Shown: positions 17,239-54,861 of the stretch, piece by piece
Layout: the number at the start of each line of letters is the position of its first letter
How positions within the stretch are numbered: position 1 is the stretch's first letter
DNA from: an uncultured bacterium
GTDB lineage: Bacteria; Omnitrophota; Omnitrophia; Omnitrophales; Aquincolibacteriaceae
Assembly: GCA_964482725.1 (NCBI GenBank)
Contig: CAYZYT010000010.1
Coordinates: 15,794-79,793, forward strand
Length of the DNA stretch: 64,000 nt
Reading direction: 5' to 3'
Notes under the pieces: model-generated
Database searches by the model: none
What the model was told of the DNA's origin: nothing
Seen by the model: the letters and a program-made list of their open reading frames with translations, nothing else
Program-made: the position numbers and the translations under genes

Positions 17239-17442
17239 ATGGAATGCAATATCGACGTCAACAAGCAGCGTTGTAATTGCTCCTACGACCCTTGCCCTCG
17301 CAAAGGGATCTGCTGCGAGTGCATTTCATATCACCGGAGGCTGAACCAATTGCCCGCCTGTTACTTCCCTCAGGACATCGAAAAAACATATGATCGGTCT
17401 GTCGGAAAATTTCTTTCGGTTCATTTGCCCAAAAAGGGATAA
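17239..17442 (+). CDS. small cysteine-rich protein (8 Cys in 30 aa: C-N-C...C...CCEC)
   Basis: '[32 protein letters not shown]'; the upstream part of ORF 17041..17442 is discarded because it overlaps tRNA-Pro. Confidence 0.4.
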
Positions 17443-17501
17443 TTGTCGCCACGATTTTATTGATCGTCACAAACCAGAATCCTAAAAAAAAGGAGATAAC
17501 G

Positions 17502-18143
17502 ATGAGATCCAGCATTCCGAAGTGGGTCTGTGTTTCTTTGCTCGTTTTGGGGCTTAGTGTGGGCGGAAGCCTTGCTTTTGCGGAAGATGAAAATTCGAAT
17601 CCCGGAGGCTGGAGCAAGGGTGAGAAGAAAGGCTGGGCGGGGAGCGTGCCCCCCGGGCAGGAAAAAAAAGAGAACGAAAAAGGTGTCAAAAAGGTTGAAG
17701 GCGAGATGCGTAAATTTGGAAGGGAAACTAAGGATGAAGTAGGCAAAGGCGCTCGTAAAGTTGAAGACGAGATGCGCCGAGCCGAAAGAAAGGCTCAGCA
17801 GGAAGCTGAAAAGATCGAGAAGAAATCCGGAGATGAACAAGGCCGGGTTGAGAAAGATGCCGAGAGGCAGAAGTTGAAGGCTGAGAGAGAAGCTGAAAAA
17901 CAGAAGTTGAAGGCTGAGAGAGAAGCTGAAAAACAGAAGTTGAAGGCCGAGAGAGAAGCTCAGAAACAGCAACGCGAGGCTGAAAAGGAAGCTAAGAAAA
18001 AACAGCGCGAAGCTGAAAAAGAGACTCAAAAGAAGCAGCGTGATGCTGAAAAAGCCAAGCGGGATGCCGAACGTGAAGCTGAAAAGGCAAGCCGTGAAGC
18101 TGAAAAAAAAAGGGTTCAAGCTGAAAAATCTGCTGTGATGTAA
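17502..18143 (+). CDS. secreted Lys/Glu-rich repeat protein
   Basis: ATG at 17502 with AAGGAG RBS; signal peptide '...GGSLAFA|EDE'; K/E-rich with 3 x 11-aa 'QKLKAEREAEK' repeats. Confidence 0.6.
   Translation: MRSSIPKWVCVSLLVLGLSVGGSLAFAEDENSNPGGWSKGEKKGWAGSVPPGQEKKENEKGVKKVEGEMRKFGRETKDEVGKGARKVEDEMRRAERKAQQEAEKIEKKSGDEQGRVEKDAERQKLKAEREAEKQKLKAEREAEKQKLKAEREAQKQQREAEKEAKKKQREAEKETQKKQRDAEKAKRDAEREAEKASREAEKKRVQAEKSAVM
17868..17966 (+). repeat. 3 x 33-bp tandem repeat inside the KE-rich gene
   Basis: 'cagaagttgaaggctgagagagaagctgaaaaa' repeated three times; third copy slightly diverged. Confidence 0.8.
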
Positions 18144-49603: not shown

Positions 49604-50074
49604 ATGATGAAACCTAAGATCGCAGTCGCGACCGATCACCGCGGCATTCAGCTGAAGAGCGCGTTAATTGATTTTCTTAAGAACAAGAATTTTGAGGTGG
49701 TCGACTGTGGCGCCTTTACCGACGAATCCTGCGATTATCCGGATTTTATTTTTGCCGCGGCTGAGAAAGTCGCCAGCAAAGAATGCCACCGGGCGATCGG
49801 GATCTGCTATACAGGGATCGGGAGCACGATCGCGGCCAATAAGGTGAGCGGTGTTCGCGCGGCGCTTTGCCAGAATATCGAACAGGCACGTCTTTCCCGC
49901 GGCCATAATGACTCCAATATGTTAATCCTCGGCTCGGGGTTTTTGCCGCAGGATATTATTTTTCCGCTCGTCGATACTTGGCTCAATACACCATTTGAAA
50001 GGGGTCGCCATGAGGTCCGTGTTAACAAAATTAGGGCTTATGAAAAGAAGCATTGTCGATCAAACGCAGCTTAA
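49604..50074 (+). CDS. rpiB: ribose-5-phosphate isomerase B
   Basis: '[14 protein letters not shown]', '[15 protein letters not shown]' RpiB/LacAB motifs. Confidence 0.85.
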
Positions 50075-51305
50075 GAGGACCGATCCGGATATTTACAATG
50101 CCATCCGGGCGGAAGTTCGCCGGCAGAACGAAAATATCGAGCTGATCGCGAGCGAGAATTTCACTTCGATGTCTGTCCTCGAGGCGATGGGTTCGGTCTT
50201 GACGAATAAATACGCGGAAGGGTATCCGACGAAGCGTTGGTACGGCGGTTGCGAAAATGTGGACGTGGTCGAGCAGCTTGCGATCGATCGCGCGAAGCAG
50301 CTCTTCGGAGCCGAGCACGCGAATGTTCAACCCCATAGCGGGACTTCGGCCAATATCGCGGTCTTTATGGCGCTCTTGGAACCGGGAGATAAGATCCTGG
50401 GCATGGATCTGACGCATGGCGGTCATTTGTCGCATGGCCATAAAATGAATTATTCCGGGAAATTTTATACGATCATTCCGTATGGGGTCAGTCCGAAAGA
50501 CGAACAGATCGATTATGATGCTCTCGAGCAGCTGGCGAAAGAGCATAAGCCCAAGATGATCCTTTTGGGCGCTTCGGCGTATCCGCGGATCATTGATTTT
50601 GCGCGCGGCCGGAAGATCGCCGACCAGGTCGGGGCGCTTTTGATGGTGGATATGGCGCATTTCGCGGGCCTTGTGGCCACGGGGCATCACCCTAGTCCGG
50701 TGCCTTACGCGGATGTGGTGACCACGACGACGCATAAAACACTTCGCGGCCCTCGCGCGGGTCTCATCCTCTGCAAAGAAAAATACGCGAAAGCGATCGA
50801 TTCCGCCGTGTTCCCGGGGATCCAGGGTGGACCGCTCATGCACGTGATCGCGGCGAAGGCCGTGGCGCTCAAGGAGGCCTTAAGCCCCGAGTTTAAAGAA
50901 TATAGTGCTCAGGTCGTGAAGAATGCCAAGACCCTTGCGAGCGCGATGGCGGCGCGCGGTTGGAGGATCGTTTCCGGTGGCACGGATAATCATTTGATGC
51001 TTGTCGACGTGACGGTGAAGGGCTTTAACGGTAAGCAGGTCCAGGAGCTTCTGGATAAAGTGAAGATCACGGTGAACAAGAACATGATTCCGTTCGACAA
51101 GGAATCGCCTTTCAAGGGCTCCGGGGTTCGGCTGGGAACGCCCGCGGTGACGACTCGTGGAATGAAAGAGAAAGAGATGGAGCTGATTGCCGAACTCATC
51201 GATGAAACGCTTAAGGCTCCCGCGGACGAAGCGAATCTCGCGAGCGTTCTTTTTCGGGTCGAAGCCCTAACTCAAAAGTTCCCGCTTTATCCGGAGCTTC
51301 AATAG
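50040..51305 (+). CDS. glyA: serine hydroxymethyltransferase
   Basis: Start at the third in-frame ATG (50040), matching the usual GlyA N-terminal length; 'ELIASENF', PLP-lysine region '[12 protein letters not shown]'. Confidence 0.9.
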
Positions 51306-51320
51306 AAGAAAAGAGATCTC

Positions 51321-51779
51321 ATGCGTTGTCCTTTCTGCAAGCAGGATTCTGATAAGGTGATCGATTCGCGTGCCGCGAATGAAGGGGAAGTCGTCCGCCG
51401 AAGGCGCGAGTGTACAGCGTGCAGTAAGCGATTCACGACTTATGAGCGGGTCGAGGAGATTCCGATGTTCGTCGTAAAAAAAGACCAGCGGCGTGAGGCG
51501 TATGAGCGCTCCAAGGTGCTTGCCGGGGTCTACAAGGCTTGTGAAAAACGTCCCGTGCCGCTCGCGGCTCAGGAAAAGGTGGCGGATGATCTCGAGACCA
51601 CGATCCGCGAAAAATATGACAGGGAAGTTCCTTCCCGAATCATCGGGGAATTTATCATGCAACGGCTCGCCAAGATCGATCAGGTGGCGTATGTGCGGTT
51701 TGCCAGTGTCTACCGCGATTTTCAGGATGTGAGTCATTTTATGAAAGAACTGAAGTTTCTGCTGGCGAAGCCGAAATAA
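51321..51779 (+). CDS. nrdR: transcriptional repressor NrdR
   Basis: 'MRCPFCKQDSDKVIDSRAA...RRRECTACSKRFTTYE' zinc ribbon plus ATP-cone. Confidence 0.9.
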   Translation: MRCPFCKQDSDKVIDSRAANEGEVVRRRRECTACSKRFTTYERVEEIPMFVVKKDQRREAYERSKVLAGVYKACEKRPVPLAAQEKVADDLETTIREKYDREVPSRIIGEFIMQRLAKIDQVAYVRFASVYRDFQDVSHFMKELKFLLAKPK

Positions 51780-51943
51780 TCTTTTAATATACGGTAGCCT
51801 TATTTAACAAAAGAGACTTAGACGGAAAAGCTTTATTGTTGTCTTTGAAACTGTATTGTATGATATCAACCTAGTAAAGCCGTGGGCGCGGGTCCGGGAC
51901 ATCGGATGCGGGAACTCGGTTCAAACCAAAAGGAGAAAGCATT

Positions 51944-52198
51944 ATGGCGAAAGCGAATTCAGCGTTTATGAAGCCGATGAATATCAGTGAAGAGCTCGCG
52001 ATTGTGGTCGGCAAGGGACCGATGCCTCGCAGCGAAGTCGTGAAAAAACTTTGGGAATACATCAAGAAGAATAAGCTTCAAGATGAGAAGAACAGGCGCA
52101 ATATCAACGGGGATGCCGCGCTCAAGACTGTGTTCGGTGGCAAGTCGGTCGTCAATATGTTCGAGATGACCAAGCTCGTCAGCAAGCACCTTTCTTAA
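51944..52198 (+). CDS. SWIB/MDM2-domain protein (chlamydial-type)
   Basis: 'NSAFMKPMNISEELAIVVGKGPMPRSEVVKKLWEYIKKNKLQD...NRRNINGD...MFEMTKLVSKHL' closely resembles bacterial standalone SWIB proteins. Confidence 0.8.
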   Translation: MAKANSAFMKPMNISEELAIVVGKGPMPRSEVVKKLWEYIKKNKLQDEKNRRNINGDAALKTVFGGKSVVNMFEMTKLVSKHLS

Positions 52199-52219
52199 GG
52201 CCTCTTTCGTTTTTCATCG

Positions 52220-52310
52220 CTCTGCCCCCCGTTGCAAAACGGAGGACAGAGTCCATGTAAAAGTTGGGCGGGAGGAAAGGATCTGGAAGGGAAACTTCCG
52301 GATCCTTTCC
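52220..52310 (+). terminator. stacked hairpins downstream of SWIB-1 (imperfect 12-bp hairpin, then a 16-bp compound hairpin with GGAAA loop), followed by a T-rich tract
   Basis: ctctgcccccg...cggaggacagag; ggaaaggatc-t-ggaag-ggaaa-cttcc-g-gatcctttcc. Confidence 0.4.
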
Positions 52311-52394
52311 GGCCCGAGACTTTCGGGTGGTTCAACAGGAATTTTCGTTTCTCTTTTTTTTAGCTGAAGACAAAAAGATTATGAAAAGGGCTTT

Positions 52395-53342
52395 ATGGGC
52401 AAGCTGGGTATCCTTTTAGCATTTCTGCTTTCCGTTGCCGCCGCGGGTGGCTCTTACTATTTGTATCAAGGTTGGGTCGAAGAACGTACTGTGCGTAGCA
52501 GCGTTGAAGCCAAGTACGATCAGGTCAAAGAAAAAATGATCACCGTCCAGTCCGAGAAAGATCAGATCAAGGCTGAGAAAGAACAAATTTCTGCGGAGAA
52601 AGATCAGATCACGGCCAAAAGCGAAGAATATCGCACCAAGGCCGAAGCGATGCAGGCTCAGCTTGAGAAACTTCAAACCGAACAAACTCGTATTGATTCC
52701 GAGAAAGCGGTTCTCGAAAAGCAGCTGAAGAGCCATCAGGAGATGATTGCGGAGCTTCAGACGAAAATGGGAGAGCTTGAGAAAAAGGCCAAGGAAGCTC
52801 AAGCCGCCTGCGGAGTGACTCCCGCCGACCTGAAGACGGATCCTTTTTATGCACCCCAATCTTTTACAAGTCCAGCAGCCTCCACAACGTCTTCGGGGGG
52901 GGCAGGACCTTCGCCGCTTGTTTTTAAACCGGTCACTTCCATCGGGACAAACGCTGTCAGCGCGTCTATGCCGGAACCTTCAGCTCCCGCGAGTGTGGTC
53001 CCTGCAGTTCAAGCTGTTTCTGTGATCACAGGGACGTCTGTTTCTGAGGCTCCGAAAGTTACAGCCCCGGAGCCTGTGCCATCTCCTGACGTCTCTGTAG
53101 CTGCCGGGGCAACGGCAGGCGCTAAAGTCCTCACGGTGAACCGCAAATTTAATTTTGTGGTTATCAACCAGGGCCTTCAGGAAGGGCTCAAGATGGGGGA
53201 CAAACTGAAGGTCTTCAAACAAGGCAAGGAGAGCGCGACGGTCCAGATCGAAAAACTCTATGACAAGTTTTCTGCGGCCACCCTTGTGGAAGAAGACCCC
53301 AAGCAGCAGGTCGTTGAAGGCGATGAGATTCGCAAGGCCTAA
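52395..53342 (+). CDS. membrane-anchored coiled-coil protein with Ser/Ala/Pro-rich linker and C-terminal beta-rich domain
   Basis: N-terminal TM helix; repeats 'EKDQIKAEKEQISAEKDQI'; low-complexity SAP linker; C-terminal 'VNRKFNFVVINQGLQEGLKMGDKLKV'. Confidence 0.5.
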   Translation: MGKLGILLAFLLSVAAAGGSYYLYQGWVEERTVRSSVEAKYDQVKEKMITVQSEKDQIKAEKEQISAEKDQITAKSEEYRTKAEAMQAQLEKLQTEQTRIDSEKAVLEKQLKSHQEMIAELQTKMGELEKKAKEAQAACGVTPADLKTDPFYAPQSFTSPAASTTSSGGAGPSPLVFKPVTSIGTNAVSASMPEPSAPASVVPAVQAVSVITGTSVSEAPKVTAPEPVPSPDVSVAAGATAGAKVLTVNRKFNFVVINQGLQEGLKMGDKLKVFKQGKESATVQIEKLYDKFSAATLVEEDPKQQVVEGDEIRKA

Positions 53343-53559
53343 GCTTCTTATCTTATCCTTGTTCCTGGGGGGGGTTTTTGTGGTTTCCTCAGCGTTCGCG
53401 GCCGAAGAACAGCCCTGGGCCACGCAAATGAAGAGCGATCTCAGCGATATTAAAACTCGTTTGGCGACCCTTGAGGAACGCCAGAAAGAGATCATCGCCA
53501 AAGAAGATAAGATACTCCAAGAGCTCGATCGCATTCGTATGTGGGTCCACAAGAGATAA
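53323..53559 (+). CDS. small secreted coiled-coil protein
   Basis: ATG at 53323; signal peptide '...SSAFA|AEE'; short amphipathic helix; same architecture as the 37720..37998 product. Confidence 0.35.
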   Translation: MRFARPKLLILSLFLGGVFVVSSAFAAEEQPWATQMKSDLSDIKTRLATLEERQKEIIAKEDKILQELDRIRMWVHKR

Positions 53560-53568
53560 TCTTTTTTC

Positions 53569-54861
53569 ATGTCCTCCCTTTCATTTACAGGTCCCGGCCA
53601 GTTCCGCGGGACTTACGCCCCTCCGGGTGATAAATCTATTTCCCACCGAGCGATCCTTTTTGGTGCTTTATCCGAAGGGGAGAGCGTCTACGAGAATTTC
53701 CTGGAAGCTGAGGATTGTCTTCATACTCTGGAGGCGATGCGCCGGATGGGCGTTCAGATCCAACATGAAAAAGGAACGGGACAGGTCCGGATATCAGGGA
53801 AGGGCCTTCATAAACTTTCCGCTCCGGGCCAGGAACTTTATCTCGGAAATTCCGGGACTTCTATGAGGCTTCTCCTGGGGATCCTGGCGGGTCAACGGTT
53901 TGAAACCGTGCTTACCGGGGATCCCTCTCTTTCAGTCCGGCCCATGCGCCGTGTGACGGATCCCTTGAAACAGATGGGCGCACAGATCAAGGGCAAAGAG
54001 AATGGCAACTTCGCGCCGCTTACGATCCGTGGCGGCAAACTTCGCGGGATCGATTTTGATAATAAACTTTCGAGTGCGCAGGTCAAGTCTGCGCTGCTTT
54101 TCGCCGGGATGTTCGCCGAAGGAAGAACCATGGTTCGTGAGGCGATTCCCTCGAGGGATCACACGGAACGGTTTCTTGAGGCCGCCGGGGCGCGTTTTCA
54201 AAAAATCGATAACCATCTGATCGTTGAAAAGACGGAAATGCTTTTGCCGTTGCACGCGCGTGTTGCGGGCGATATTTCATCCGCTGCTTTTTTTATCGTA
54301 GGAGCGGCGATGATCCCGGGCTCTGAGTTGACCGTTCTGGATGTGGGGCTCAATCCCACACGGACCGGACTTCTCGAAGTTCTAAAACGCATGGGCGCGA
54401 AGATTGAAATCGAAGTCAAGCAAACGGTTCCGGAACCGATGGGGACGATCCACGTGTGTGGCGCGAAACTGAAAGGTACAGGGATCACGCACGGGGAGAT
54501 CCCGTCCCTGATCGATGAACTCCCGGTCCTGATGGTCGCGATGGCACTTGCGGAAGGGGAAAGCCTTATTTCAGGTGCGGCGGAGCTACGCGTCAAAGAA
54601 ACCGATCGTATTCAATCCATGGTTCGGAATCTTAAGGCGATCGGAGCGTCGATCGAAGAGCTTCCGGATGGGTCTCTTATAAGGGGAGTGGAGAAATTTC
54701 ACGGCGCCACGGTCGAGAGTTTTGGAGATCACCGGACGGCGATGAGTATGGGGGTGGCCAGCCTCGCTTCGGAGGGAACGATCGAAGTCACGGACACGGC
54801 ATGCATCGCGACTTCTTACCCCGCTTTCATGGACCCTTTTCTCCGGTTGCTCAAGTCCTGA
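53569..54861 (+). CDS. aroA: 3-phosphoshikimate 1-carboxyvinyltransferase (EPSP synthase)
   Basis: 'GDKSISHRAILFGALSEGES', 'LGNSGTSMRLL' EPSP synthase motifs. Confidence 0.9.
   Translation: MSSLSFTGPGQFRGTYAPPGDKSISHRAILFGALSEGESVYENFLEAEDCLHTLEAMRRMGVQIQHEKGTGQVRISGKGLHKLSAPGQELYLGNSGTSMRLLLGILAGQRFETVLTGDPSLSVRPMRRVTDPLKQMGAQIKGKENGNFAPLTIRGGKLRGIDFDNKLSSAQVKSALLFAGMFAEGRTMVREAIPSRDHTERFLEAAGARFQKIDNHLIVEKTEMLLPLHARVAGDISSAAFFIVGAAMIPGSELTVLDVGLNPTRTGLLEVLKRMGAKIEIEVKQTVPEPMGTIHVCGAKLKGTGITHGEIPSLIDELPVLMVAMALAEGESLISGAAELRVKETDRIQSMVRNLKAIGASIEELPDGSLIRGVEKFHGATVESFGDHRTAMSMGVASLASEGTIEVTDTACIATSYPAFMDPFLRLLKS

Follow-up and report, generated by a model that had tools for sequence, protein, structure and literature searches.

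A conserved stem-loop in the 5' leaders of two paralogous SWIB genes from Omnitrophota

Structured 5' leaders are known from several bacterial genes, and three groups of them offer points of comparison for the leader described here. The rnc and pnp leaders contain RNase III processing hairpins in their 5' UTRs. The autoregulatory leaders of rpsF (S6:S18), rne (RNase E), cspA and hfq are bound by the proteins that they precede; in them, a gene-specific hairpin of the 5' UTR, with its conserved internal loop, stands ahead of the coding region of a small, abundant protein that binds nucleic acids. An invariant internal loop and lower stem below a variable apex is typical of hairpins that are recognized by proteins. 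To our knowledge, no promoters or UTRs have been characterized in Omnitrophota. The closest described systems are the ompA, papA and aprE mRNAs, which are stabilized by 5' stem-loops (references 92-95 and 109 of PMC3997798).

Here, we analyze the leaders of two SWIB genes in a 64,000-nucleotide stretch of DNA from an uncultured member of the Omnitrophota, hereafter the window. We find that the leader hairpin is a real, previously undescribed and conventional 5'-UTR stem-loop. Like the leaders of ompA and papA (E. coli) and aprE (B. subtilis), it is a single hairpin, near the predicted 5' end and upstream of a strong, exposed Shine-Dalgarno sequence (SD) that it does not overlap, and it precedes a short and presumably highly expressed gene. 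It differs from those leaders in lacking sequence homology to them, in being longer, and in being interrupted by a conserved purine-rich internal loop.

Two SWIB genes and their predicted transcription units

Protein searches with the window gave their closest matches exclusively in Omnitrophota MAGs. Pfam PF02201 (SWIB/MDM2 domain) matches both of the genes that an earlier note on this DNA had recognized as SWIB paralogues (Table 1). Copy 1 sits within the gene order SHMT - nrdR - SWIB - coiled-coil - 78-aa ORF - aroA (49995-54861 in the window), which is kept in related Omnitrophota contigs (L100-L120), and copy 2 lies downstream of an mreB-mreC-mreD-pbp2-rodA cluster. The coiled-coil protein encoded after SWIB, about 290-340 aa long, diverges fast in these contigs (40-68% identity), and NrdR is 86-97% identical. 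Genes of the copy-2 class (L009, L011, L027, L081, L089 and L095) bear a Lys/Ala N-terminal extension and occupy other genomic contexts; rodA synteny was looked for among these copy-2 orthologues and not found. Copy-2-type genes elsewhere in genomes nevertheless retain the promoter and leader, the leader having a common variant in this class, GGGUUCGG...GUCCGGAC.

The extension itself (60423-60452 in the window; also L009, L011, L027, L089 and L095) is Lys/Ala-rich and variable in length, with versions that include MAKAKAN (86-aa protein), MAKAKAKAN (88 aa), MAKAKAKSKGKAN (92 aa, the window copy) and MAKAKAKTKAKGKAN (94 aa). In sequence, it resembles a histone tail: a low-complexity tract that apparently lengthens and shortens.

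A tree built on a 240-nt core of the coding sequence (CDS) recovers the copy-2 class as monophyletic in 151 of 200 bootstraps and places copies 1 and 2 as sisters in just 11 of 200, which indicates that the SWIB duplication predates the divergence of these genomes. Judged from these comparisons, the promoter, hairpin and ribosome-binding site (RBS) form a self-contained cassette that is retained in both SWIB lineages after an old duplication.

Table 1. Features of the two SWIB loci, in window coordinates
Feature	Position	Strand	Details
nrdR	51321-51779		upstream of SWIB copy 1
Copy 1 putative promoter block	51825-51864	+	GAAAAGCTTT 51825-51834; -35-like TTGTTG 51836-51841; 17-bp spacer
Copy 1 -10 TATGAT	51859-51864	+	
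Copy 1 initial single-stranded 5' segment, AUCAACCUAGUAA	51865-51877	+	unpaired in all folds
Copy 1 leader stem-loop	51878-51921	+	44 nt; RNAfold MFE, RNAalifold consensus, pair counts, selection test
Copy 1 A-rich linker CAAACCAA, SD and 8-nt spacer to ATG	51922-51943	+	unpaired in all folds
Copy 1 SD AAGGAG	51930-51935	+	
SWIB gene copy 1	51944-52198	+	84 aa; Pfam PF02201, E 9e-30
Terminator-like hairpin after copy 1	52219-52252	+	without U-tract; fold of 52196-52330: -64.3 kcal/mol, z -4.8
Copy 2 putative promoter block	60303-60340	+	GAAAAGCTTT 60303-60312; aligned to copy 1
Copy 2 -10 TATGAT	60335-60340	+	
Copy 2 leader stem-loop	60355-60398	+	44 nt; RNAfold; covariance-model match 81.7 bits
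Copy 2 A-rich linker, SD and spacer to ATG	60399-60419	+	unpaired
Copy 2 SD AAGGAG	60406-60411	+	
SWIB gene copy 2	60420-60698	+	92 aa; N-terminal KAKAKSKG extension; Pfam PF02201, E 2e-29
Terminator-like hairpin after copy 2	60709-60757	+	inner 13-bp stem 60718-60747; without U-tract; fold of 60696-60800: z -5.3

The TATGAT motif reported earlier is indeed present upstream of both SWIB copies, and the leaders as first delimited (51881-51943 and 60357-60419) align almost without gaps, with the original coordinates and alignment correct. We infer that the TATGAT block functions as a promoter from which the leader is transcribed, with copy 1 transcripts starting at about 51871-51873. A simple sigma-70 scan did not call this TATGAT promoter because its -35 element is weak. 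Overlapping the copy 1 -10 is a perfect palindrome, TGATATCA (51862-51869). At this site the orthologues read TGATACTA, TGATAATA and TGATGCCA, and neither an NrdR box nor the palindrome is kept in them; since it is not conserved, the palindrome is probably fortuitous.

At the other end of each unit, the very strong hairpins that directly follow the stop codons are succeeded by CAUG(U)AAAAGU, and copy 1 has an extra, perfect 16-bp hairpin (52274-52311). The terminator stems of the two copies look like restructured homologues. Termination in this organism may be able to do without a U-run.

Fold, strand and specificity of the leader

SWIB loci were collected from three sources: a protein search with one genome per species, from which we used the best 80 of at least 555 genome matches; a DNA pattern run on metagenomes that fixed only the promoter, SD and start codon and placed no condition on the hairpin; and exact protein look-ups. 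Alignment A2 holds the 23 distinct leaders that can be aligned to the window leaders, and several divergent leaders were considered besides.

In copy 1, an outer stem (AGCCG.G/C.CGGUU) and an inner stem (CG.GUCCGG/UCGGAU.CG) flank a purine-rich internal loop, GGGC(G)/GGGAA, and the apical loop is GACA. In copy 2 the outer stem is AGCUGAG/CUCGGUU and the inner stem CGGGUUCGG/CCGGACUUG, closed by a GAGU loop. Both hairpins are imperfect, with an inner stem of 8-9 pairs and an apical loop of 4 nt, and folded alone with RNAfold they reach -22.8 kcal/mol (z -2.9) for copy 1 and -21.0 kcal/mol (z -3.7) for copy 2. The substitutions that separate copy 2 from copy 1 keep or improve pairing: a U·U mismatch becomes A-U, and the remainder are C-G/U-G and G-U/G-C exchanges. 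This long stem-loop replaces the GAAC/GUUC mini-hairpin proposed previously, which occurs in no minimum-free-energy or consensus fold; CUCGGUU is instead the 3' strand of the outer stem and pairs with AGCCGUG, and the L089 leader breaks the mini-hairpin while its long stem gains a pair.

We give little weight to the hairpin-only z-scores across leaders (-1.2 to -3.7), because the hairpin boundaries were set after folding. Whole-leader z-scores, which run from +0.3 to -2.7, are too weak to carry the case, so we turned to comparative evidence instead. RNAalifold run on the 23 leaders recovers the same hairpin, and 98.7% of stem cells in these leaders are paired, compared with 13-48% when the partners are slid by 1-3 columns. 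Covariation is weak inside the close family, with one double change and 4 of 500 shuffles reaching the observed score. A covariance model built on A2 also aligns the divergent L092, L008 and L007 leaders, and with these added there are double, compensatory changes in 5 of 13 pairs and none of 500 shuffles reaches the score, in an alignment that is model-fitted. In the outer stem, for example, G-C is replaced by A-U and C-G by U-A.

Counts of wobble pairs tell on which strand the structure forms. The stem cells contain 56 G·U, distributed over seven pairs, against one A·C, an imbalance that points to a structure in plus-strand RNA rather than to a DNA palindrome or an antisense RNA. The same counts disfavor the protein operator that the earlier note had listed among its options. 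If the element acted as DNA, it could be an inverted-repeat operator downstream of the promoter, for a dimeric repressor or for SWIB itself, or it could affect promoter escape through the initial transcribed region. The repeat does span about +8 to +52, within the range of roadblock repressors, and SWIB-type proteins bind DNA, as small SWIB-only proteins do genome-wide in Waddlia (PMC6426960). We nonetheless consider action as DNA very improbable: the complementarity is strand-asymmetric, with G·U pairs that would be mismatches in DNA or on the opposite strand, the G-C/G-U/A-U exchanges preserve pairing in RNA only, and the central "spacer" of the supposed operator, which is the apical loop, is its least conserved part.

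An RNA element in a 5' UTR might also be a riboswitch, an RNA thermometer or a CsrA-type translational switch. Its location is one that it shares with the bacterial cis-regulatory families of Rfam, and both window copies present a GGA on the 5' flank of the apical loop and another in the SD, about 20-30 nt away. This reading is scarcely credible, however, since the leader folds into one hairpin, lacks a multi-stem junction and has too plain an architecture for an aptamer, and its SD is unmasked; neither the SD nor the AUG is ever paired, there is no alternative terminator or U-tract, no Rfam family matches at E up to 10 beyond noise, and the apical-loop GGA is missing in L001, L111, L116, L092, L007, L008 and L006. 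The thermosensor that had been suggested specifically is disfavored by geometry, with AAGGAG lying 9-10 nt outside the hairpin and unpaired in every fold.

Four further candidates were considered and rejected. An intrinsic attenuator would be at odds with the lack of a U-tract after the hairpin, and a terminator scan called none in the leader. A CsrA site is suggested by loop-edge GGA in W1, W2 and many other leaders, but this is not conserved among them. A K-turn was judged by inspection only: with 4 x 4 nt (GGGM/GGAA) the internal loop is symmetric, and it has neither the 3-nt bulge nor the tandem sheared G·A pairs of that motif. Finally, no SD precedes the sole in-leader GTG or ATG, and indels of 1-3 nt (a loop insertion in L011 and G/A insertions in columns 15-17) break any frame that a leader peptide or upstream ORF could use.

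The element is specific to SWIB genes. The window contains exactly two instances of the 16-mer GGGAACTCGGTTCAAA, and the covariance model, run with filters off, finds only the two SWIB leaders in these 64 kb. The third match (17423-17504; 11.1 bits, E = 3.2) is taken as chance. The further copies that the earlier note had proposed to look for were not found: across the window and about 213 kb of related loci, the model matches only SWIB leaders, and we reject a regulon-wide motif on this basis. An Rfam 15 cmscan of the whole window gave no match at the gathering threshold, and both leaders searched at E up to 10 gave just chance matches to eukaryotic lncRNA and snoRNA models. Our literature search returned no paper tying an RNA motif to SWIB genes.

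Selection on the leader in orthologues and distant relatives

Comparison of the two window copies was the original argument for selection; its observations are confirmed in part, and the argument itself fails. Leader identity is 48/62, or 77% (51881-51943 against copy 2), clearly above the 56% found upstream of the -10 and the 51% found downstream of the stop codon, so that the leader is better conserved than flanking non-coding DNA, as had been stated. The coding regions, described as about 80% identical, are in fact 87% identical at both the nucleotide and the amino acid level, and their fourfold-degenerate sites are 83% identical (24/29). The leader has therefore not been kept while the CDS diverged: it falls below both figures, and being no better conserved than fourfold sites, it provides no evidence of selection within the paralogue pair alone. 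Two objections foreseen at the outset thus fare differently, in that synonymous CDS divergence is as low as leader divergence, whereas the leader, far from being confined to one genome, is conserved in many others.

The evidence for selection comes from orthologues. Taking copy 1 as the reference, we compared it with each of 13 orthologous nrdR-SWIB loci in other Omnitrophota. Over the 42 nt compared, divergence of the hairpin from copy 1 is 0-12% in 12 of the 13 loci and 26% in L084, while nrdR fourfold sites differ at 27-54%; hairpin divergence is significantly below this neutral rate in every comparison (Fisher p 5e-3 to 9e-9). SWIB fourfold sites, at about 22% divergence pooled over orthologues, are about three times as diverged as the hairpin. 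The surrounding DNA is less constrained: the 190 nt after the SWIB stop codon are 25-31% divergent and carry indels in addition, and identity in the intergenic DNA upstream of the -35 is just 49-68%, with large indels, in those comparisons that align more than 11 bases. Orthologues match copy 1 at 87-96% of positions in the promoter block, counted from -46 through the -10, and at 89-97% in the whole leader (81% in L084). Pooled by element, the SD shows 0% divergence, the linker 3%, the stems 4.4% (about 4% for the outer stem in the close family) and the internal loops 7%; the apical loop reaches 25% and the single-stranded 5' segment 20%. On these comparisons, the leader is under purifying selection that bears the signature of an RNA stem-loop, and its standing as a selected candidate cis-acting RNA, which the paralogues could not secure, is upheld by the orthologues.

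These data also bear on the simplest view of the leader, in which it has no function beyond promoter and RBS and its similarity is a duplication relic or the product of recent exchange of a SWIB cassette. In keeping with that view, the 77% leader identity of the paralogues does not exceed the 83% at their fourfold sites, SWIB genes have been reported among horizontally transferred genes (PMC12455944), and SWIB fourfold divergence, at about 22%, is less than the 27-54% of nrdR. It does not explain why the hairpin is about three times less diverged than SWIB fourfold sites and far less than the downstream 190 nt, why constraint tracks the partition into stems and loops, or why unrelated hairpin sequences hold the same position in distant relatives, and the duplication itself is old. 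We regard this view as largely refuted and assign it only a very slight probability.

One metagenomic locus, L090 (Ga0247841_10074457), stands apart. From the upstream intergenic DNA through promoter and leader it matches the window at 100%, yet its nrdR fourfold sites differ at 13% and its SWIB fourfold sites at 3/35. This pattern could reflect cassette recombination or exchange between related strains, or very strong constraint.

Beyond the close family, the hairpin changes in sequence. The syntenic loci L006, L007, L008, L092/L094 and L012 keep the promoter TTGTATGAT and the RBS AACCAAAAGGAG and differ in the sequence between them; in L006, L007, L008, L092 and L012, this differing sequence again folds into a hairpin at the same position. 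Across nine leader types, the hairpin starts 9-16 nt past the -10, comprises 9-16 pairs and in most types is 41-47 nt long, with shorter versions at the same place in L006 (33 nt, 11 pairs) and L012 (24 nt, 9 pairs). In all but one of the nine types, 9-10 nt separate its 3' end from GGAG, GGAG lies 7-10 nt before the AUG, and the AAGGAG SD is unpaired in every fold. The fold of L005, a distant syntenic locus, has no clear hairpin.

Candidate roles of the stem-loop

We propose that the hairpin acts post-transcriptionally, as a constitutive determinant of expression. In this model, each SWIB gene would be its own transcription unit, consisting of a promoter, a 5' leader of about 80 nt, the CDS and a terminator hairpin. 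Near its 5' end, starting at a position of about +2 to +9, the transcript would fold into an imperfect stem-loop of about 44 nt, followed by a fixed, A-rich single-stranded linker of 9-10 nt and then by a strong, exposed AAGGAG 8 nt before the AUG. From its position immediately ahead of the ribosome footprint, and together with the strong RBS, the stem-loop would protect the short mRNA from 5'-end-dependent decay. The SWIB mRNA is probably abundant and the gene highly expressed. By analogy with ompA and aprE, a 5' stem-loop that sets mRNA stability or expression is the most likely role of the element, one to which we give somewhat less than an even chance; the stabilizing effect itself is likewise inferred from that analogy.

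Two observations sit less easily with a simple stabilizer. A start 7 nt after the -10 would leave 6-9 unpaired nucleotides before the hairpin in most leaders, so that, if the predicted 5' end is right, the SWIB leaders may differ from those of ompA, papA and aprE in this respect as well. In E. coli, 6-9 unpaired 5' nucleotides would weaken protection against 5'-end-dependent attack by RNase E and RppH. In addition, differing sequences form the hairpin across lineages, yet members of the close family have almost the same sequence, internal loop included. Divergence of 7% in the internal loop (GGGM/GGGAA) and about 4% in the outer stem, against a neutral 27-54%, seems over-constrained for a generic stabilizer and hints at a specific partner.

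Such a partner could be a trans-acting RNA-binding protein, SWIB or another, for which the hairpin would be the binding site and through which the joint SWIB dosage of both paralogues would be set. Across the 23 leaders, near-invariance of the internal loop and lower stem contrasts with variation in the apical loop and upper stem; the element occurs at SWIB genes only and was retained by both paralogue lineages after the old duplication; and the small SWIB-only proteins of Waddlia bind nucleic acid genome-wide (PMC6426960). The leader resembles the autoregulatory leaders in being a gene-specific 5' UTR hairpin with a conserved internal loop, in preceding a gene for a small, abundant nucleic-acid-binding protein and, in this case, in being present in both paralogues. 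It differs from them in that the hairpin stands off the RBS and that its sequence is replaced where the protein is nearly unchanged: the SWIB proteins of L008, L092, L007 and L006 are 85-86% identical and yet their hairpins differ in internal loop and sequence, and homologues in CPR bacteria, at about 80% identity, have unrelated leaders. With the leader sequence turning over while the SWIB protein stays fixed, sequence-specific contact between SWIB and the RNA is not expected, and with the hairpin 9-10 nt clear of the SD and start codon, simple occlusion is unlikely. RNA binding by SWIB domains is, moreover, undocumented in the literature that we found. We therefore hold a protein-binding site to be unlikely, if well worth weighing, and the more specific form, in which SWIB protein would bind the invariant purine-rich internal loop as an RNA operator and the paralogues would be titrated by their joint product, to be quite improbable. 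If it were true, bacterial SWIB-only proteins would be RNA-binding autoregulators, and the leader would offer a first way into the function and dosage control of a protein that is exceptionally conserved across Omnitrophota and CPR.

Alternatively, the hairpin might be a processing site of the RNase III type, with cleavage in the 5' UTR setting the decay rate or the mature 5' end. Its helix of about 20 bp-equivalents with internal loops, roughly two turns, recalls the imperfect helices of about 20 bp in the rnc and pnp leaders, and its length is mostly 41-47 nt, with conserved sequence in the lower stem and internal loop. Versions with 9-11 pairs at the same position in SWIB relatives have no counterpart in that comparison, and the L006 (11 pairs) and L012 (9 pairs) hairpins would be poor substrates. 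Sequence does not separate processing from protection, and we give processing a small chance.

Whichever of these roles applies, and with constitutive stabilization as our preferred reading, the element adds a lineage-specific, undescribed 5'-UTR stem-loop to the known bacterial leader structures and defines the promoter, leader and RBS architecture of a probably highly expressed chromatin-type gene in an uncultured phylum. SWIB transcription units in Omnitrophota could be annotated with its help, and it might also be used as a portable module for expression or stability. A conserved 5' hairpin will not surprise a specialist, and it opens no long-standing question.

The cross-phylum conservation of the SWIB protein is maybe a more interesting lead than the leader hairpin. 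The 84-aa protein of this Omnitrophota genome is 77-89% identical to those of dozens of Patescibacteria/CPR MAGs (L010-L080). Such identity is unusually high between phyla and, on the sequences compared, is compatible with extreme constraint as well as with horizontal transfer; for groundwater Patescibacteria, PMC12455944 counts SWIB genes among those predicted to be horizontally mobile. The leaders of the CPR/Patescibacteria homologues, besides being unrelated to those of Omnitrophota, are AT-rich. In 5-7 of 60 CPR SWIB leaders (L010, L014, L019, L079 and others), AAAGGTCG/AAGGTAG followed by an AT-rich run stands about 32 nt before the ATG, and this motif may be a lineage-specific promoter or leader signal.
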